Shown one piece after another: positions 1 through 7,267 of a stretch of DNA of 7,267 bases (position 1 is its first letter; the number at the start of each line of letters is the position of its first letter). Both the position numbers and the translations under genes were made by a program. The notes under the pieces are model-generated. The model saw only the letters and a list, made by a program, of their open reading frames with translations. It ran no database searches and had not been told where the DNA came from. Origin of the DNA: a virus (taxonomy: Duplodnaviria > Heunggongvirae > Uroviricota > Caudoviricetes). The stretch lies in IMG/VR virus record IMGVR_UViG_3300029745_000183, positions 1-7,267 of that record, one strand, 5' to 3'.

Positions 1-192
1 GTGACGCGAAAAGATGCCTGGTACTTTGCCAACTATGACCCGCGTATGAAGCGTGAAGGCCTGCATTATGTCGTGGTTGAGCGGGATGAAAAGTACATGG
101 CGAATTTTGACGAGATGGTGCCGGAGTTCATCGAAAAAATGGACGAGGCACTGGCTGAAATTGGTTTTGTATTTGGGGAGCAATGGCGATGA
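1..192 (+). CDS. 3' end (63 codons) of an unidentified protein, probably truncated at the window edge
   Basis: Frame is open from base 1 to TGA at 190-192. The first codon is GTG at the window edge, so the real start is most likely upstream. The stop overlaps the ATG of the next ORF (ATGA at 189-192). No motif I can assign. Confidence 0.5.
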
Positions 193-347
193 CGCATCCT
201 CACGATAATATCCGGGTAGGCGCGATCACTTTCGTCTACTCCATTACAAAGCGAGGCTGGGTATTTCCCGGCCTTTCTGTTATCAGAAATCCACTGAAAG
301 CACAGCGGCTGGCTGAGAAGATAAATAACAAACAGGAGGATATATGA
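189..347 (+). CDS. Hypothetical small protein (52 aa), translationally coupled on both sides
   Basis: ATG at 189 overlaps the upstream stop (ATGA) and its TGA at 345-347 overlaps the ATG of the DGQHR gene (ATGA). GGGGAG sits 9 nt upstream of the ATG. It is below the 60-aa cutoff of the supplied ORF track. No recognisable domain. Confidence 0.3.
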
Positions 348-1408
348 GTCAGGTTGGTAATCATTCATTCGAATTTCCGGCATCGCAAGGTGTACAGGGT
401 GGTACTGTTACACTCTTCCTTACCATACCAGGAAGATCGCTGGCTCGTTTCCTCGCTTCAGATAATTACGGCCATACACTGGAACGCTCTCAGCGAGAAA
501 TTAATCCAAATCGAGTACGAAAATTTTTAAATTATCTCACTAACGCAGACTCAAGAAATGAGCCTTTTATCATTCCCCCTCTCGTAGGTAACTGTGATTC
601 GAATATAGAATTTGTACCGTTTGGCAACACAAATGTTGGTATAGCCAGAATTCCCCTCGACGCCGAAATAAAACTTTTTGATGGTCAACATCGTGCAGCT
701 GGCATTGAGATATTTTGCCGAAGTTCCCCATCAACGCTCATGGTTCCCATGATGCTTACAATGAATCTGCCGCTAAAAACCCGGCAGCAGTTCTTTTCGG
801 ACATAAATAACAACGTTTCTAAGCCATCAGCGACCATCAATATGGCGTATAACGGCCGGGATGATATTGCTCAGGGAATGATATCCTTCCTGACCCAACA
901 TACTGTATTTGCCGATATAACCGATTTTGAACACAACGTAGTGCCATTAAAAAGTAATATGTGGGTGAGTTTCAAGGCACTCACTGATGCAACGTCAAAG
1001 TTCGCTAGGAACGGCAATCAACAACTTGAAATGGGATATATAGAATCTGTCTGGGAGGCATGGATTACACTAACTCAGATTGACTCAATCCGACATGGTG
1101 TACACCACGCTACGTACAAGCGCGATTATATTCAGTTCCATGGAGTAATGATTAACGCTTTCGGTTTTGCGGTTCAACAGATGATGGTTAATCATTCCAT
1201 CGCAGAAATAACTTCTATGATCGAAAAACTATGTGCAACTACCAGCTCTGCAGAAAGAGAGGATTTTTTTCTGATGGATAACTGGGCGGGGATCTGCACG
1301 AAAGCCAGCCAGGAAAAACTATCTGTTATTGCCAATGTGGCAGCGCAGAAAGCAGCAGCAAACAGACTGATACAAGCTTTTACCAAAGGAAGTCTGGAAA
1401 CAACTTAA
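344..1408 (+). CDS. DGQHR-domain protein, DndB-like (ParB/Srx-fold superfamily), 354 aa
   Basis: Contains the exact family-defining motif DGQHR (in IKLFDGQHRAAGIEIF), preceded by FIIPPLVGN. Length is in the DndB range. AGGAGG lies 4 nt upstream of ATG 344. No DndC/D/E-like genes follow in the window. Confidence 0.75.
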   Translation: MSQVGNHSFEFPASQGVQGGTVTLFLTIPGRSLARFLASDNYGHTLERSQREINPNRVRKFLNYLTNADSRNEPFIIPPLVGNCDSNIEFVPFGNTNVGIARIPLDAEIKLFDGQHRAAGIEIFCRSSPSTLMVPMMLTMNLPLKTRQQFFSDINNNVSKPSATINMAYNGRDDIAQGMISFLTQHTVFADITDFEHNVVPLKSNMWVSFKALTDATSKFARNGNQQLEMGYIESVWEAWITLTQIDSIRHGVHHATYKRDYIQFHGVMINAFGFAVQQMMVNHSIAEITSMIEKLCATTSSAEREDFFLMDNWAGICTKASQEKLSVIANVAAQKAAANRLIQAFTKGSLETT

Positions 1409-1485
1409 TGAATCAACATTGTCTCATATCAGCATGCTGTACGGCGTCTTTAAGGAACGGTGAGCATGAAAAACAAAATCATCAT

Positions 1486-1512
1486 GGAGCTACAGGCTCC
1501 TTTTTTATTATT
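1486..1512 (+). terminator. Candidate intrinsic terminator downstream of the DGQHR gene
   Basis: GGAGC-tacag-GCTCC hairpin (5-bp stem) followed directly by TTTTTTATTATT. The stem is short, so this is weak to moderate. Confidence 0.35.
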
Positions 1513-1561
1513 CGCATTCACCCTCAAGCGTATTAACCAACAATTCAGGGATTAATGAAAG

Positions 1562-1780
1562 ATGGCAGACATCATTGATTCAGCATCAGAAATTGAAGAA
1601 TTACAGCGCAACACAGCAATAAAAATGCGCCGCCTGAACCACCAGGCTATATCTGCCACTCATTGTTGTGAGTGTGGCGATCCGATAGATGAACGAAGAC
1701 GCCTGGCCGTTCAGGGTTGTCGGACTTGTGCAAGTTGCCAGGAGGAGATCGAACTTAAGAACAAACAATGGGGACTGTGA
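1562..1780 (+). CDS. TraR/DksA-family C4-type zinc-finger protein (72 aa)
   Basis: Small protein with two Cys pairs (CCEC and CRTCASC) in the spacing typical of the TraR/DksA C4 zinc finger. Homologues are common in lambdoid early regions. Confidence 0.7.
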   Translation: MADIIDSASEIEELQRNTAIKMRRLNHQAISATHCCECGDPIDERRRLAVQGCRTCASCQEEIELKNKQWGL

Positions 1781-1827
1781 TGGCTTCAAAGCAGCAAATT
1801 TCAACATCGTCCAACTGAGGTGTAAAA

Positions 1828-2067
1828 ATGTTCAGAATCATTTTTCCTAACACCTGGTACGTCGACCACCACGGCACTCCCTGCAAAATCCTGCGTTCTA
1901 CCCACAACAAAGTTCACTACATCCGAAAAGGCAGAACATGTATCGCCAGCATGTTCCGCTTTAATCATGACTTTGAACCTGTGAATAAAGCTGATGCAGA
2001 TCGGATAGCAGAAGAGATCGAAACGGCAGAACACATTAAGAAGTTACGTGCCATACGCAGGAAATAG
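1828..2067 (+). CDS. Hypothetical phage protein (79 aa)
   Basis: ORF with a good SD (GAGGTG, 7-nt spacer), co-oriented with the xis-int operon. No motif recognised. Confidence 0.55.
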   Translation: MFRIIFPNTWYVDHHGTPCKILRSTHNKVHYIRKGRTCIASMFRFNHDFEPVNKADADRIAEEIETAEHIKKLRAIRRK

Positions 2068-2206
2068 AAAAATTGATAAATTCAATACTGCATTACTCAG
2101 CATTAAATTTATCTCTATGACCAGTCAAGAGATGTACCTGCCATGAGCTTAATATCATGTCAGATATATCGGTCACAAACTCCCTCAGCAGCTAAGAGGA
2201 GGACAA

Positions 2207-2443
2207 ATGTCTCGACTAATCACTTTACAGGACTGGGCTAAAGAAGAATTTGGGGACTTAGCACCAAGTGAGCGAGTTCTGAAAAAATACGCGCAAGGGA
2301 AAATGATGGCCCCACCCGCTATAAAAGTTGGTCGCTACTGGATGATTGACCGAAATTCCCGTTTTGTAGGAACGCTTGCAGAACCGCAACTCCCAATAAA
2401 CGCAAACCCAAAACTCCAACGGATAATCGCTGATGGCTGCTAG
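2207..2443 (+). CDS. xis: Excisionase (lambda Xis-like winged helix)
   Basis: N-terminal ITLQDW and a PPAIKVGRYW segment resemble lambda/HK022 Xis (LTLQEW ... PPPVKDGREY). AAGAGGAGG RBS. The 3' end overlaps the int start by 11 nt, as in lambda. Confidence 0.85.
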   Translation: MSRLITLQDWAKEEFGDLAPSERVLKKYAQGKMMAPPAIKVGRYWMIDRNSRFVGTLAEPQLPINANPKLQRIIADGC

Positions 2444-3575
2444 ACCCCGATCTCACAAAATCTCTATACCCAATTTATATTGCAAATTAGATAAGCGAAC
2501 CGGAAAGGTATATTGGCAATACAAACATCCACTATCCGGTCGTTTTCATAGCTTAGGAACTGATGAGAATGAAGCAAAACAAGTTGCTACTGAAGCAAAT
2601 ACCATTATTGCTGAACAACGTACCAGACAAATATTAAGCGTCAATGAGCGTCTGGAAAGAATGAAAGGCAGGCGCTCAGACATTACGGTGACAGAATGGC
2701 TTGATAAATATATTTCTATCCAGGAGGACAGGCTGCAACATAATGAACTAAGACCCAACTCCTATCGGCAAAAAGGCAAACCCATTCGTCTTTTCCGTGA
2801 GCATTGTGGAATGCAACACCTCAAGGATATTACCGCACTTGATATTGCCGAAATAATTGATGCTGTAAAGGCTGAAGGTCATAACAGGATGGCGCAAGTC
2901 GTGAGAATGGTGTTGATCGACGTCTTCAAAGAAGCACAACACGCAGGACATGTTCCGCCAGGATTTAACCCTGCGCAGGCAACAAAACAACCGCGAAATC
3001 GAGTAAACCGCCAAAGATTGTCACTGCTCGAATGGCAGGCAATATTTGAAAGCGTAAGCAGACGGCAGCCCTATTTAAAATGCGGCATGCTACTTGCTCT
3101 TGTTACTGGACAACGTTTAGGCGATATCTGCAATTTGAAATTCTCTGATATATGGGACGACATGTTGCACATTACTCAGGAAAAAACCGGTTCAAAACTT
3201 GCTATTCCGCTTAACCTGAAATGCGATGCTCTGAATATTACCCTTCGTGAAGTTATATCTCAGTGCAGGGATGCTGTTGTTAGTAAATATCTGGTCCATT
3301 ACCGTCACACTACCTCTCAAGCAAACAGAGGAGACCAGGTTTCTGCAAATACTCTGACAACGGCTTTTAAAAAGGCCCGGGAAAAATGTGGCATAAAATG
3401 GGAGCAAGGAACTGCGCCCACATTTCATGAGCAGCGATCTCTCTCAGAACGGTTATATCGGGAACAGGGTCTGGATACGCAAAAGTTGTTAGGCCATAAA
3501 TCCAGAAAAATGACCGACCGATACAATGATGATCGTGGTAAAGACTGGATTATCGTAGATATCAAAACAGCATAG
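2433..3575 (+). CDS. int: Tyrosine recombinase, lambda Int family integrase (380 aa)
   Basis: N-terminus RPRSHKISIPNLY and C-terminal TFHEQRSLSERLY...LLGHKS...RYNDDRG match lambda Int (RRRSHERRDLPPNLY; TFHELRSLSARLY...LLGHKSDTM...YRDDRG), including the catalytic R, HxxR and Y positions. Confidence 0.95.
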   Translation: MAARPRSHKISIPNLYCKLDKRTGKVYWQYKHPLSGRFHSLGTDENEAKQVATEANTIIAEQRTRQILSVNERLERMKGRRSDITVTEWLDKYISIQEDRLQHNELRPNSYRQKGKPIRLFREHCGMQHLKDITALDIAEIIDAVKAEGHNRMAQVVRMVLIDVFKEAQHAGHVPPGFNPAQATKQPRNRVNRQRLSLLEWQAIFESVSRRQPYLKCGMLLALVTGQRLGDICNLKFSDIWDDMLHITQEKTGSKLAIPLNLKCDALNITLREVISQCRDAVVSKYLVHYRHTTSQANRGDQVSANTLTTAFKKAREKCGIKWEQGTAPTFHEQRSLSERLYREQGLDTQKLLGHKSRKMTDRYNDDRGKDWIIVDIKTA

Positions 3576-3585
3576 AAAATAGCCA

Positions 3586-3622
3586 GTTTTGGGGAAGGGT
3601 TTTGGGGAAAGTTTTGGGGAAG
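3586..3622. repeat. Three tandem copies of GTTTTGGGGAA(G/A), period 12-13 bp
   Basis: Direct reading: copies start at 3586, 3599 and 3611, immediately 3' of the int stop codon. Confidence 0.6.
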
Positions 3623-3642
3623 ATTTTACATCATCATAAATC

Positions 3643-3675
3643 AACGGGCGTGTTATACGCCCGTTTCAATATTTA
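3643..3675. terminator. Bidirectional intrinsic terminator shared by int (+) and the icd fragment (-)
   Basis: Perfect 9-bp stem AACGGGCGT / ACGCCCGTT with a 5-nt loop, followed by TTTCAATATTT on the + strand and a U-rich run on the minus strand. It lies 23 nt beyond the icd stop codon. Confidence 0.65.
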
Positions 3676-3688
3676 ACACATGTAGTGA

Positions 3689-3853
3689 TTACATATTCTT
3701 GATGATCGCGTCACCAAACTCTGAACATTTCAGCAGTTTAGCGCCTTCCATCAGACGTTCGAAGTCATAGGTTACAGTCTTCGCGTTGATCGCGCCTTCC
3801 ATACCTTTAACAATCAGGTCTGCGGCTTCAGTCCAACCCATGTGGCGCAGCAT
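3689..3853 (-). pseudogene. icd: 3'-terminal fragment of isocitrate dehydrogenase (last 54 codons plus stop), icdC-like
   Basis: Minus-strand translation gives [54 protein letters not shown], which I recognise as the Icd C-terminus. An in-frame TAA two codons upstream ends the homology at about 3853, so no full-length icd is present. Confidence 0.85.
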
Positions 3854-3911
3854 TAGTTAGATGACTAAATCGTAACTATTTGACATAGCAACATAATTTT
3901 ACTAATTTGCA

Positions 3912-3948
3912 TATAACTCATTAGCCCTTAGCATTTCTATAACTCATT
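3912..3948. repeat. Two exact direct copies of TATAACTCATT, 26 bp apart
   Basis: Direct reading: copies at 3912-3922 and 3938-3948, in the AT-rich arm between the icd homology boundary and the mcrA 3' end. Confidence 0.5.
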
Positions 3949-4040
3949 GATTATAAACATGTGTTTTTGAGTTTTGATAACCATTTTTAGCATAAAAATA
4001 GCAGTTAACATTTGCAGAAGTTAAGATCAGAGAAAAATTT

Positions 4041-4054
4041 TACCCTGTAGGGTA
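4041..4054 (-). terminator. Weak candidate terminator downstream of mcrA
   Basis: TACCC-tgta-GGGTA hairpin about 35 nt past the mcrA stop, followed on the minus strand by AAATTTTTCTC. The stem is only 5 bp. Confidence 0.2.
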
Positions 4055-4086
4055 TTACGTCTTAAATGTGACTTTAATAAATAATT

Positions 4087-4920
4087 TTATTTCTGTAATC
4101 GGTTTATATTAACGTAAAGCATCTCGATTAGTTCTTTTGCATTTTTACTATAGTGCAATTCTCTATGGCAATTCGGACAAAGGGCAACACAGTTATCTGT
4201 TGTATCAGCACCACCTGAAGACAGGGGAATTACATGATGCACTTCCAAATATGGGTTTCCATCATTTAAATAAAACGGAGCATTTTTACCACAGTTTTCA
4301 CATATACCTTTACTTTGCTGTAAAATCCAAGCTTTTACCATCGGGTCTCGGACATAAACTTTTTGTAGTCTTTCTACCTCAACTGGTTTCCTAGAGCCCT
4401 CGGGTTGACTCAACGTTTTCTTAATTAATTTACTAACCCTCATATTCAGAAGCGATTCATCATCTGTAGGCTGTGAAAGCTCTGATAGTTCTCCACGTAT
4501 TATAGACGCCCAAAAACTGTCACTATAAATACCTGGAACATTTATCAATATTCGTTTCGTTCTATTGCCGGAAGGAATTTCCTTTCTCCCCGTACGACTA
4601 AAATAAGCCTGATAACCACACATCTTCAAGCGTATATCGCGGGGGCTATTACCAATCAAAGTAAAATATTCACCAGGATGGATTTTTCTTTCATCCAAAG
4701 AATGCATATGTTTTCTGACTGATGATGACGCCAGATATACTACGACTTGGGATACACCAGAATCAACCAACCGTTCAATGATATAATCAAGAGCGATATT
4801 GTAATCTTTGTTTCTGTCACCCGGCCCCCACGACTCAAGGATTAGACCATAAACACCATCCTCTTCACCTATCGAACACTCAGCTTTCAGTTCAATTCCA
4901 TTATTATCAAAAACATGCAT
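4087..4920 (-). CDS. mcrA: McrA, type IV modified-cytosine-specific restriction endonuclease (HNH), 277 aa
   Basis: Protein begins MHVFDNNGIELKAECSIGEEDGVYGLILESWGPGDRNKDY and ends with the HNH region CENCG...HHVIP...CVALCPNCHRELH. Length and sequence match my recollection of E. coli McrA, which is encoded on e14 next to pin. Confidence 0.93.
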   Translation of the reverse strand: MHVFDNNGIELKAECSIGEEDGVYGLILESWGPGDRNKDYNIALDYIIERLVDSGVSQVVVYLASSSVRKHMHSLDERKIHPGEYFTLIGNSPRDIRLKMCGYQAYFSRTGRKEIPSGNRTKRILINVPGIYSDSFWASIIRGELSELSQPTDDESLLNMRVSKLIKKTLSQPEGSRKPVEVERLQKVYVRDPMVKAWILQQSKGICENCGKNAPFYLNDGNPYLEVHHVIPLSSGGADTTDNCVALCPNCHRELHYSKNAKELIEMLYVNINRLQK

Positions 4921-5026
4921 AATATTAATCTTTAATCAATTTTTCACGACAATACTACTTTTATTGATAAAATTGCAACAAGTTGCTGTTGTTTTACTTT
5001 CTTTTGTACACAAAGTGTCTTTAACT

Positions 5027-5581
5027 TTATTTATCCCCTGCAGGAAACCTCTTATACAAAGTTGACACACCAACATCATAGATAATCGCCACCTTCTGGC
5101 GAGGAACTCCTGATGCAATTAATCGTCCGGCCTGTTCCCATTGTTCTGGTGTAAGTTTGGGACGACGTCCACCAATTCGTCCCTGTGCGCGAGCAGCTTC
5201 CAGTCCAGCTTTTGTTCTTTCAACAATCAGTTCACGCTCCATTTCAGCCAGGGCACCCATCACATGAAAGAAAAAGCGCCCCATTGGGGTACTGGTATCA
5301 ATTGAATCCGTCAGACTACGAAAGTTGATGCCTCGTTCGCGCAACTCCTCCACCAGCACGACAAGATGCCGCATACTGCGCCCCAGTCGGTCCAGTTTCC
5401 AGACCACCAGCGTATCACCTGCCGATAATGTCCTGAGCAGTTTTTTCAGTCCCGGCCTTTCGGACTTTGTACCGCTTATCTTGTCTTCAAAAATCAGCTC
5501 GCATCCTGCACAGTTCAGCGCATTACGTTGTAGATCTGTGTTCTGGTCATTTGTTGACACACGTACATAGCCAATAAGCAT
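5027..5581 (-). CDS. pin: Pin DNA invertase, serine recombinase of the Gin/Hin/Pin family (184 aa)
   Basis: From the internal Met the protein reads MLIGYVRVSTNDQNTDLQRNAL..., the canonical invertase N-terminus with catalytic Ser in VRVSTNDQ, and has a C-terminal HTH. GGGAG RBS 8 nt upstream of ATG at 5581. The track ORF start at 5617 is an in-frame upstream extension. Confidence 0.93.
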   Translation of the reverse strand: MLIGYVRVSTNDQNTDLQRNALNCAGCELIFEDKISGTKSERPGLKKLLRTLSAGDTLVVWKLDRLGRSMRHLVVLVEELRERGINFRSLTDSIDTSTPMGRFFFHVMGALAEMERELIVERTKAGLEAARAQGRIGGRRPKLTPEQWEQAGRLIASGVPRQKVAIIYDVGVSTLYKRFPAGDK

Positions 5582-5607
5582 GGTAGATCTCCCTGACAAA
5601 AGCAGGA

Positions 5608-6063
5608 ATGATGCCATTTGCTCGTTATTTCTGCATTTTCATAAACGTTGGTTTGGGAGAAGCGGCAAAACGAAATGTGGGGACAGGGGAAAATCAGATA
5701 CCGGACATGGCCTCTTTTGCCAGTGGTGATGGATGGATGAAATTACCCAACGGGAAAATCCTGCAATATGGTCGTGGTGCGATTACGCCGACATTATCGA
5801 CGCAAACAATGAGAATTACATTCAGCATCCCTTTTCCTAAAGAAGTGGACTGCGCCATGCTTACCCATTCTGGTGATGGTGGTGCGCCTTTAGGCGCTGG
5901 ACGGGGATTCGTGATGACTGCAGAAGGTCCAACACTAACCGGTTTTAATTCCGCTTACAGAACTGCATCAACCAGCTCCACAGTAACCTCTATAACTGTA
6001 TTGACGATTTGCAGTGATTGCAGGACGTTACGGGTAGCCTCATCGTTCTGTGGTTTCTGTTAA
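5608..6063 (+). pseudogene. Orphan side-tail-fibre C-terminal fragment (stfE-like), the variable cassette of the Pin inversion module
   Basis: Divergent from pin and reads through the crossover site. The segment [19 protein letters not shown] resembles tail-fibre C-terminal domains. No fibre N-terminal region, no tfa gene, and a Cys-rich, non-protein-like tail ([17 protein letters not shown]). ATG 5608 is probably not a genuine start. Confidence 0.4.
5636..5661. other. Pin/Gin/Hin-type recombination crossover site (pix-like), 26 bp
   Basis: TTTTCATAAACG-TT-GGTTTGGGAGAA: two 12-bp half-sites around a 2-bp core. Reverse complement TTCTCCCAAACC-AA-CGTTTATGAAAA resembles hixL TTCTTGAAAACC-AA-GGTTTTTGATAA. 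Sits 55 bp upstream of the pin start, the expected position. Confidence 0.55.
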
Positions 6064-6068
6064 TCGAT

Positions 6069-6269
6069 TTATCCATTAGATTTTTCATAAAGCTCAGGTT
6101 TAAATGGCAACCGTCCGCAAGTTCTATATGCAGCTTCTGCTGCACGTCCTTTTGGAATTAACTGGCCCGGACGGTTTCGCCACTGATAAACGGCTTCAGT
6201 TGTTATGCCGAAAAAAGCAGCAACTTTCTCAATACTGCCGAAGTAGCTTTCGATATCGTCAGTTGTCAT
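6069..6269 (-). CDS. Cro-like HTH regulator (YdaS/Cro family), 66 aa
   Basis: Small HTH protein (VAAFFGITTEAVYQWRN...IPKGRAAEAAYRTCGRLPFKPELY) transcribed divergently from the CI-like repressor. GGAGGG RBS. Confidence 0.8.
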   Translation of the reverse strand: MTTDDIESYFGSIEKVAAFFGITTEAVYQWRNRPGQLIPKGRAAEAAYRTCGRLPFKPELYEKSNG

Positions 6270-6366
6270 ACGCCCTCCAAACTAAGTTTTATTAGATGCT
6301 AATTACAAATCTATCTTTGGTCAATAAAAACTAAGATTACTTAGCAATTCAAGAAATGGTGCTCCT
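6270..6366. promoter_or_regulatory. Divergent promoter/operator region between the cro-like and cI-like genes
   Basis: 97-bp AT-rich intergenic region. Two inverted repeats of form CTAAG-N4-(C/A)TTAG at 6282-6295 and 6331-6344. Minus-strand sigma70-like elements TTGACC (6319-6324) and TAGCAT (6296-6301) with a 17-bp spacer, a candidate pR for the cro-like gene. Confidence 0.55.
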
Positions 6367-6993
6367 ATGGAAACGGTTGGTCAGCGTATAAAAGCTCTGA
6401 GAAGAGTTACCGGAACGTCCCAGAAAGAATTGGGTAAATTTTGTGGAGTAAGCGACGTTGCTGTGGGGTACTGGGAGAAAGACATCAATACCCCTGGTGG
6501 GGAGGCACTTTCGAAATTAGCGAAGTTCTTCAATACGTCAATAGATTACATTCTTTATGGTGCTGAGTTTGAAGGCAAACTCGTCACAAACATGCGCAGA
6601 GTTCCTGTAATATCGTGGGTTCAGGCTGGGCAGTTTACTGAGTGCAGGGCAGCAGAAGTGTTTAGTGAAGTGGACAAGTGGGTAGATACATCATTAAAGA
6701 TTGGTGATAACTCATTTGCATTAGAGGTTAAAGGTGACTCCATGACTAACCCTAATGGCCTCCCAACAATACCAGAAGGCGCAACAGTGATTGTAGATCC
6801 AGATGCAGAACCTCGTCATGGAAAAATAGTCATCGCTCGACTTGATGGAACAAACGAAGCTACAGTAAAAAAATTAGTCATCGATGGCCCTCAAAAGTTT
6901 TTAGTGCCATTAAATCCTCGGTATCCCAACATCCCTATCAATGGTAATTGCCTTATCATTGGTGTAGTCAAAGGAGTTCAATACGAACTCTAA
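6367..6993 (+). CDS. CI-like prophage repressor: N-terminal XRE HTH plus C-terminal S24 (LexA-like) autopeptidase domain, 208 aa
   Basis: HTH at the N-terminus (QKELGKFCGVSDVAVGYWE). Ala-Gly cleavage-site candidate in WVQAGQF. Catalytic Ser in KGDSM and Lys in ATVKKL, as in LexA and lambda CI. Confidence 0.88.
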   Translation: METVGQRIKALRRVTGTSQKELGKFCGVSDVAVGYWEKDINTPGGEALSKLAKFFNTSIDYILYGAEFEGKLVTNMRRVPVISWVQAGQFTECRAAEVFSEVDKWVDTSLKIGDNSFALEVKGDSMTNPNGLPTIPEGATVIVDPDAEPRHGKIVIARLDGTNEATVKKLVIDGPQKFLVPLNPRYPNIPINGNCLIIGVVKGVQYEL

Positions 6994-7058
6994 GACCTCT
7001 CTTCTCTAACTAAGGCACCGAACTAAGAAAAGTTTGGTGTTTTCTCTTGCCATAATAA

Positions 7059-7072
7059 CTAAGTTAAGTTAG
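7059..7072. promoter_or_regulatory. Third operator-like inverted repeat CTAAG-ttaa-GTTAG downstream of the repressor gene
   Basis: Same half-site architecture as the two sites in the cro-cI intergenic region. Lies in a 247-bp untranslated region upstream of the next + strand gene, where a pL/oL equivalent would be expected. Confidence 0.3.
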
Positions 7073-7240
7073 ATTTTATATCAAAGATAACGAACAGGCA
7101 GGACGCCCACGAAGTAGCCGCCTGGGGCATATGAAGTCCAGGATGATTCGTTAGCAACAAAAAAGCGCCCTACAGGACGCTTAGCTCTTTAACAATCTGG
7201 TCCCCATCAACAAGTAACTGATAACTTGAGGAGGTGTGAA

Positions 7241-7267
7241 ATGCACAAAACAGAACCAAAAATCGTC
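7241..7267 (+). CDS. 5' end of an unidentified gene (first 9 codons, MHKTEPKIV), truncated by the window end
   Basis: ATG at 7241 preceded by a strong GAGGAGG SD with a 6-nt spacer. Co-oriented with the repressor gene. Confidence 0.4.

Follow-up and report, generated by a model that had tools for sequence, protein, structure and literature searches.

Two decayed prophages, one of them e14-like, likely stand in tandem at the icd site of Escherichia coli

The 3' end of icd in Escherichia coli is used as attachment site by e14 and by lambda-like phages, such as phage 21 and NC-SV (PMC12803456). The e14 element of strain K-12, 15.2 kb long and integrated in icd, bears mcrA (PMC12707154). It is excised upon SOS induction, recombining icd with icdC (PMC13626634), and its circular form is visible on gels (PMC2614495). 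Here we analyzed a stretch of 7,267 nucleotides (IMG/VR virus record IMGVR_UViG_3300029745_000183, positions 1 to 7,267), called the window below, in which a cI/cro switch, a xis-int pair, an icd fragment and mcrA lie close together. A first-pass annotation, made from the sequence, had treated them as possibly a single minimal, SOS-responsive and excisable island. All the genes it named were present, according to the list of open reading frames (ORFs) and Pfam. The window is likely, though, the boundary of two independently integrated, heavily decayed E. coli prophage remnants, in tandem in the 3' end of icd, of which the right one is e14-like and has an SOS-type switch.

Two remnants meeting in an icd copy

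The window was identical over its full length to positions 4391-11657 of L004, a 120,694-bp E. coli contig (GCA_052411635.1). Two further contigs (L006 and L008) also matched it at 100% identity, and a 179-kb scaffold (L005) at 99.97%. When compared with 5,426 complete E. coli genomes, the window fell into three segments, never found contiguous in this set, and none of the genomes had more than 53% of it in one place. The first segment (1-3853) was present at 100% identity in many complete genomes. The second (3854 to ~5985) was the mcrA-pin-stf' end of e14-type prophages, and the third (~6030-7267) a cro/cI module.

The sequences flanking the window were different on the two sides. To the left, L004 carried exo', a scrap of O, lambda P, ren, emrE, ybcK and a P22-AR fragment. 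Beyond cI, on the right, there were a 68-aa ORF, an ECs1072-family gene, yfdP, yfdQ, yfdR, xisE, intE, a 775-aa NB-ARC/TPR gene and a complete icd (L004 19090-20340), followed by chromosome; L004 18972-20453 was 98.2% identical to K-12 icd and its upstream region. The two window ends thus lead into unlike DNA, and a circularly permuted element with a single unseen gap, as had been proposed, does not apply. In the flanks there was no complete series of replication, lysis and structural genes arranged as in a prophage, in agreement with the first-pass annotation. In the window itself, the ORF list and a Pfam scan showed no complete replication, lysis or morphogenesis gene; this part of the annotation stood, except for an overlooked 53-nt scrap of a DUF2570 gene, from a lysis cassette. 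Rfam gave no known RNA family in the window, including no small RNA match like C0293 of e14 or svsR of NC-SV.

Window 1-3575 corresponds to the int-proximal arm of a remnant that is lambda-like and has the phage-21-type icd site as its attachment site. Segment 1-3853 lies, in FORC 064 and many further genomes, at 100% identity directly against a full icd, as the int-proximal arm of a degraded lambdoid prophage. As in a lambdoid prophage at the phage 21/icd site, a lambda-type Int and Xis stand beside an element-borne icd 3' end, and the early-left genes follow the lambda order. A 5.85-kb deletion in this remnant fused O' to the 5' end of exo' (L004 232-3929 and 3928-4700 map to 7137-10829 and 16675-17447 of the related contig L002). 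The deletion took the S24 repressor, cro, kil, gam and bet of the left remnant, and since the repressor/cro region is lost, its xis-int is cut off from any switch. Judging from relatives, the rest of the left remnant probably consists of ybcK, emrE, ren, P, tail-fibre scraps and McrBC, up to icdC.

The e14-like remnant measures 11,011 bp; window 3854-7267 contains its far end, and the remainder lies beyond the window. Its xisE-intE pair lies 3 kb past the window end (L004 14684-16037). IntE and XisE were 93.9% and 93.8% identical to those of K-12, and 99.7% and 100% identical to those of an intact prophage in strain 00-3076. The Int encoded in the window and IntE shared 59% identity, and Xis and XisE 35%. 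The e14-like element uses its own xisE-intE, and not the xis-int at 2207-3575. By these identities, and by the arm repeats described below, xis-int and the DGQHR gene belong to a different remnant than CI, Cro, pin and mcrA, and the single element of the first-pass annotation does not hold.

The two remnants meet in a copy of the icd 3' end. On the int side of this copy, motif comparison recognized three tandem TTTTGGGGAA repeats (3587-3621, plus strand), putative arm-type Int sites in the P' arm of the left remnant. One more TTTTGGGGAA copy was found ~120 nt beyond icdC, where the left element has its opposite end (contigs L001, L024 and L027). The icd homology itself spans ~219 nt (3635-3853, minus strand), with a coding part (3689-3853) that corresponds to the last 54 icd codons, and was 87% identical to the icd 3' end at L004 19036-19254. 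On the mcrA side follows the P arm of the e14-like element (3854-4086), within a 2,027-nt block that was 97.6% identical to K-12 e14. The P arm contained a single GTTTTGATAACC motif of arm type (3971-3982), at a distance of 118 nt from the core, and three TTTTGATAA copies, also written TTTTGATAA(C), were located beside the icd 3' end at L004 18988-19020. The int side of the core carries TTTTGGGGAA and the mcrA side TTTTGATAAC, and the hybrid att region extends over 3587-3982. Both elements share an arm geometry, with three copies on P' and one on P, each with its own motif.

In an alignment of nine icd copies, the copy at 3635-3853 did not differ from the icd 3' end that borders int in FORC 064. 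The e14 flank (...gtcatctaacta next to ATGCTGCGCCA...) joins this copy on its icd-internal side, exactly as in the mcrA-icdC join of K-12. The full icd carries the element-type 3' end, and the copy in the window is the displaced one. Because ATGCTGCGCCA (icd strand, window 3843-3853) is bounded by the first single-nucleotide polymorphism (SNP) separating the icd copies, the crossover probably took place within it. Either order of integration is compatible with the structure seen in the alignment. From this anatomy, 3635-3853 appears to be the attR core region of the e14-like element and, at the same time, the attL core region of the left remnant, forming a hybrid P(e14-like)-core-P'(left). For a single element, such as the first-pass annotation had in view, this att region would have to be an attP; the arm repeats differ on either side of the core and the window ends are not joined, so that the window holds no true attP. 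Int arm-type repeats, when compared across a core, can tell a true attP from a hybrid tandem junction.

The right remnant resembles K-12 e14 in several respects. Both have the same attachment site, an element-borne replacement of the icd 3' end and a displaced icd fragment at the far end. They share the pin-mcrA-P arm end, with an identical flank at the core, and orthologous IntE/XisE (94%) beside the icd end, here outside the window. The layout is also shared, with S24 repressor/Cro, early-left genes, xis, int and a cargo slot by icd. They differ at attR, which in K-12 e14 abuts icdC and here abuts another prophage. In window orientation, the whole locus would run from icdC through McrBC, tail-fibre scraps, ybcK, emrE, ren, P and O'; then exo', DUF1317, DGQHR, TraR, DUF4222, xis and int; then icd'; then mcrA, pin, stf', DUF2570', cro, cI, orf68, ECs1072, yfdPQR, xisE, intE and the NB-ARC/TPR gene; and end with the full icd.

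Decay and switch of the e14-like remnant

Strain 00-3076 had an apparently complete 40.6-kb e14-like prophage at icd. Compared with L004, the NB-ARC/TPR-intE-xisE-yfdRQP arm of this prophage was 99.4% identical at the nucleotide level, and the pin-mcrA end 99.0%. The alignments indicate that the e14-like remnant derives from a myovirus-tailed phage of ~40.6 kb by at least two deletions. The 53-nt DUF2570 fragment (5984-6036), a 100% match to DUF2570 genes of E. coli prophages, maps colinearly to 00-3076 21656-21708, and the match with strain ML35 on the cro side begins at 6030, precisely at the expected ymfL start. Hence, there were at least two deletions between stf' and cro. The first, of ~9.6 kb, reached from the ymfL start into DUF2570, and the second, of ~19.8 kb, from DUF2570 into the tail-fibre exon beside pin. 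The genes removed were ymfL and those for replication, late control, holin/lysozyme, HNH-terminase (terminase/cos), head and tail, together with the second Pin crossover site. The scrap shares 2 nt (5984-5985) with one neighbouring segment and 7 nt (6030-6036) with the other, which suggests that both joins were microhomology-mediated; a Pin-mediated deletion seems less likely. The first-pass annotation had cro running straight into the tail-fibre remnant, pin and mcrA; the order holds, with the scrap in between.

The tail-fibre exon stf' (5611-5985, plus strand; Pfam Gp53-like_C) is a variable C-terminal, gp53-like exon, matching the stf alleles of G47-1 and NZRM4169 up to 5976 and 5985, respectively. 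It reads on across the junction as a chimeric 150-aa ORF (5611-6063), called as a gene on ~20 contigs. This count was obtained with the caller start (5611) as the beginning of the query; a query from the first ATG (5608) gave no match.

K-12 e14 is also deletion-decayed from a ~40-kb phage like the 00-3076 prophage. It still has ymfL/ymfM, O'/terminase', portal', baseplate' and an entire invertible segment, whereas the remnant described here has none of them, has larger and different deletions, and retains a single pix site. A remnant in CFSAN061772 had one 28.7-kb deletion, and its int-icd slot was occupied by a CBASS-like nucleotidyltransferase and a Cap15-family gene. From their sequences, K-12 e14 and CFSAN061772 appear to have reached similar cores by independent deletions.

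The exact stf'-DUF2570'-cro junction was also found on a metagenome contig (L007), where it was joined to a truncated pin, GmrSD, GIY-YIG and smpB; the part shared with the window was 5460-6259. We rejected this contig as proof that the remnant has moved. Its left part is an ssrA-side prophage, found in S88, NU14 and others as well; that prophage and the window have ~250 nt in common (pin'-pix-stf 5'). Most likely, the contig is an assembly join through this repeat (metagenome assembly with k=141); it is possible that it is a real recombinant.

The e14-like remnant appears to keep a lambda-style switch, XisE/IntE, and both att sites with matching arm repeats. Its cI (6367-6993, plus strand) encodes a repressor with a helix-turn-helix (HTH) and a self-cleaving-type S24 domain (Pfam HTH_3 and Peptidase_S24). 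In an alignment to the lambda CI structures 2HO0 and 3BDN, the VQAG (Ala-Gly cleavage site), GDSM (Ser) and VKKL (Lys) motifs were conserved, so that the cleavage site and Ser/Lys dyad of lambda-CI/LexA-type S24 repressors follow the HTH. The cro gene (6069-6269, minus strand) belongs to the P22-Cro family (Pfam P22_Cro), and its product was 100% identical to the ML35 Cro. The region between the two genes is OR-like (6270-6366), with predicted operators of the form ACTAAG-N5-TTAG at 6281-6295 and 6330-6344, flanking a PR-like promoter (6324-6296, minus strand). A PL-like promoter (7047-7075, plus strand), like the former predicted by a promoter scan, is overlapped by a third operator (7058-7072) and points toward yfdPQR-xisE-intE. 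The three operator copies in the window compare with 0 expected by chance. All four of cI, cro, xisE and intE were full length. The first gene to the right of cI, the 68-aa ORF (L004 11631-11837), starts at 7241 on the plus strand and runs off the window at 7267; in ML35 it is annotated as a hypothetical protein. CI was 32% identical to K-12 YmfK and Cro 18% to YmfT, and the immunity is not that of e14. The immunity module, to judge from its sequence, was acquired by mosaic swap, and is present in ML35 as well.

With these parts, DNA damage would lead to RecA-stimulated self-cleavage of CI, and the loss of CI would derepress the PL-like promoter and turn on XisE/IntE. These would recombine attL (icd next to P') with the hybrid attR (P next to icd') and release an 11-kb non-replicating circle. 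The left remnant would come to lie directly against icd, as in FORC 064. The circle would either reintegrate or dilute out, taking mcrA and the STAND-type gene along, as described for K-12 e14. The stripped, SOS-switchable and defence-carrying remnant that the first-pass annotation had seen in the window can be recognized, as a prediction with conserved parts, in the e14-like element, and not in the window as a whole. The SOS excision with conditional loss of mcrA that it had anticipated is documented behaviour of K-12 e14 (PMC13626634), and not that of a new kind of island.

Several points weigh against this reading. The far left end of the left remnant is deduced from relatives, which share 99.9% identity with it over the 4.4 kb that can be compared. 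At attR, the B' side consists of the icd copy of the neighbour, and not of the native icdC. SOS responsiveness is argued from homology to lambda CI, as the repressor is just 32% identical to that of K-12. Excision of K-12 e14 after SOS induction was reported as slow or inefficient (PMC13626634). Between the PL-like promoter and xisE-intE there are an oppositely oriented ECs1072-family gene and a hairpin (7163-7182), and an antitermination or activator function could have been among the deleted 29.5 kb.

The inefficient excision of e14, the intervening gene and hairpin, and the loss of 29.5 kb would also fit a fully grounded e14-like remnant, which does not excise and stays in the chromosome as a fixed defence island, its switch serving superinfection immunity or surviving by chance; the factors for int/xis expression could have been lost with the early and late genes. 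We regard this as a possible outcome, if a doubtful one. The cI, cro, xisE and intE genes are not only full length, but also 99.7-100% identical to other E. coli prophage copies, and the att arms and repeats are intact. K-12 e14, with a similar degree of decay, is still excised upon SOS induction. The predicted excision product, a left remnant directly against icd, is common among genomes, though it could equally represent the ancestral state.

It is improbable that the two remnants act as a composite, with IntE/XisE, or the left Int/Xis in trans, excising both via the outermost att sites, or the left one alone, such that the e14-like switch governs DGQHR, McrBC and other left cargo. In favour of a composite, the core ATGCTGCGCCA is common to all three att copies, the two Int proteins have the same target site in icd, and the left Int and Xis ORFs are intact. 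The arm-type motifs nevertheless differ between the elements, as do Int and Xis in the identities given above, and the left remnant has neither promoter nor switch for its int-xis. An e14-like element predicted to excise, next to a left remnant without a switch, is the reading we keep.

The first-pass annotation had also proposed that the island may be packaged by helper phages. This is unsupported, because the HNH-terminase region, the expected position of cos, is deleted and satellite-type genes are absent. Phage satellites, such as phage-inducible chromosomal islands (PICI) and P4-like elements, resemble the 11-kb element in being small and in having an integrase, a repressor-type switch and defence cargo. 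Unlike them, the 11-kb element had no called gene or Pfam match for replication/primase, capsid size, packaging redirection or the terminase small subunit, and its terminase-proximal region was missing. Having neither a replication module nor a helper-packaging hijack, it is a deletion derivative of a full phage, and not a PICI/P4-like satellite.

Tandem prophages in other genomes

The same int-icd'-mcrA-pin junction was found in a 3.6-Mb contig (L027), 99.8% identical over 6.2 kb, with an e14-like partner that still has tail genes. The complete genome 82.0311 shows this order too, with a full lambdoid prophage and, after it, a full e14-like phage. A diverged form of the int-icd'-mcrA junction was present in four complete genomes. 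Laboratory lysogens with phage 21 and e14 in tandem, their related but distinct integrases acting in one icd attB, were reportedly studied by Wang et al. 1997 (J Bacteriol 179:5705). In that work e14 is said to excise itself much better than the adjacent phage 21 prophage, and vice versa. That tandem was reportedly a laboratory lysogen of a viable phage, whereas here both partners are natural remnants and the one at the 21 site lacks a switch.

ML35 (L015 10439-15002) had a single fused element, in which an e14-like left arm (cI, cro, ymfL...baseplate, ymfQ') was joined to lambda P'-ren-emrE-ybcK. The most likely origin of this fusion is a deletion that spanned an earlier tandem junction and removed pin, mcrA, the middle icd copy and the int-xis of the neighbour.

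Most of the contigs bearing the junction are short-read metagenome assemblies, and the related contig L007 resembles a repeat join. The tandem could accordingly be an assembly artefact, produced by joining or collapse through the ~219-nt icd repeat. We consider this very improbable, as the arrangement recurs in several independent assemblies, including the 120-kb and 179-kb contigs, as the int-icd'-mcrA junction is seen again in the 3.6-Mb contig and, diverged, in the four complete genomes, and as the middle icd copy has a SNP pattern of its own. Finally, a single circularly permuted minimal element of ~7-8 kb, with CI/Cro controlling the xis-int at 2207-3575 and with 3580-4090 as attP, would account for the named genes and for an int-(icd fragment)-mcrA order superficially like P'-core-P, but is scarcely credible given that the window lies inside 120-kb and 179-kb contigs with unlike flanks and, to the right, a second xis-int and a full icd, that the arm repeats and the integrases differ (59%), and that the left arm alone stands beside icd at 100% identity in many genomes.

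Cargo genes and the icd locus

The left remnant enters the window with the 3' end of exo' (1-192, plus strand), a lambda exonuclease gene of the YqaJ family (L004 3923-4582 matched YqaJ, and FORC 064 is annotated with a lambda exonuclease family protein). It is followed, all on the plus strand, by a DUF1317 gene (189-347; PF07026, also annotated in FORC 064), a DGQHR/DndB-like gene (344-1408; Pfam DndB 3.8e-46, PADLOC DndB 4.3e-37), a TraR/DksA-type zinc-finger gene (1562-1780; Pfam zf-dskA_traR), a DUF4222 gene (1828-2067; Pfam DUF4222), the excisionase gene xis (2207-2443; Pfam Exc) and int (2433-3575; Pfam Arm-DNA-bind_1 and Phage_integrase), which encodes a lambda-type tyrosine integrase of the icd/phage-21-site type. 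The int gene was 98% identical at the nucleotide level to sequenced Lambdavirus phages. Window 1-3853 was 97.8-98.5% identical to the int-xis-DUF4222-TraR...exo arm and attP-side icd fragment of the Lambdavirus phages 4A7, 3W, 1W and Perceval. Unlike these phages, the left remnant carries a DGQHR gene, and it is devoid of an immunity region and of N, Q, lysis and head genes.

The DGQHR/DndB-like gene is a lone, swapped-in moron in the early-left arm of the left remnant. It was absent from 4A7, 3W and 1W, otherwise 98% identical, and there were no partner dnd/dpd genes near it. In this icd-site remnant it sits between DUF1317 and TraR. The same slot was filled alike in prophages with a different integrase, located beside fimZ/sfm (L018, L021 and L022), and by DUF1382 and a hypothetical gene, without the DGQHR gene, in 82.0311. 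Further to the left, comparison of L004 232-4700 with L002 showed emrE (SMR multidrug efflux) and a ybcK-type large serine recombinase gene between ren and the tail-fibre scraps. Genes of these two types are known from DLP12 of K-12, pointing toward module sharing between icd-site and DLP12-type lambdoid prophages.

The e14-like remnant has defence genes at both ends, namely McrA and the STAND-type NB-ARC/TPR protein. The cargo gene mcrA (4087-4920, minus strand) encodes an HNH type IV restriction enzyme directed at 5-methylcytosine, 100% identical to K-12 McrA (PADLOC mREase_IV 6.5e-203). The slot between pin and att (3854-5026) is a variable cargo position. It had an intact mcrA here and in K-12, a truncated mcrA and a LEM-3-like GIY-YIG gene in 82.0311, and GmrSD (DUF262), GIY-YIG and a DpnII/MboI-type gene in the ssrA-side prophage of S88 and NU14. 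The cargo slot between int and icd, at the other end, was occupied by the gene for the 775-aa NB-ARC/TPR (STAND-type) protein (L004 16356-18683), while K-12 e14 has lit/ymfD/ymfE on its int side. PADLOC gave weak matches only for this protein (PDC-M34B 5.9e-10, over the N-terminal ~120 aa), and it may be an undescribed defence candidate. For yfdP, yfdQ, yfdR, ECs1072 and TraR, PADLOC gave no match. The ECs1072-family gene (L004 11809-12243) resembles a self-contained moron, set between the PL-like promoter and the early-left operon; the hairpin at 7163-7182 (minus strand), strong and terminator-like, lies downstream of it.

The serine DNA invertase gene pin (5027-5581, minus strand; Pfam Resolvase and HTH_7) was intact, and its product 97.8% identical to K-12 PinE. 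A candidate pix-type site (5636-5661, minus strand), which we take to be the Pin crossover site by the Gin/Hin/Pin consensus, was the sole match with up to 3 mismatches in the window and in all 20 kb of L004. The partner site and the tfa genes are deleted, and there is no Pin/Gin/Hin-type invertible tail-fibre switch. Pin would be left without a partner site in cis, and the tail-fibre exon would be dead.

We can speculate that e14-like phages at icd have been repeatedly and independently cut down to an SOS switch, Int/Xis and defence genes at the ends, as in this remnant, CFSAN061772 and, partly, K-12 e14, and selected as a defence cassette that is jettisoned under SOS; we think this rather unlikely. 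If true, DNA damage would conditionally strip the McrA type IV restriction and the STAND-type sensor from a subpopulation, and in tandem arrays the e14-like switch might be the sole regulated route for remodelling the icd defence hotspot.

The main value of the analysis is a correction. A seemingly tiny element with switch, int, att and defence genes is the likely seam of two ordinary prophage remnants, and genes that seem linked, CI/Cro with xis-int and DGQHR with McrA, come from different elements. The right remnant is an ordinary member of the e14 family, with swapped immunity and deeper decay, and leaves the understanding of e14-type elements unchanged. It represents a further case in which a decaying prophage kept its immunity switch, its recombination genes and the defence genes at its ends. 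The icd site emerges as a hotspot of stacked prophages and defence genes, with McrA, a STAND NTPase, McrBC and DGQHR at this locus, and CBASS, Lit, GIY-YIG and GmrSD in its relatives.

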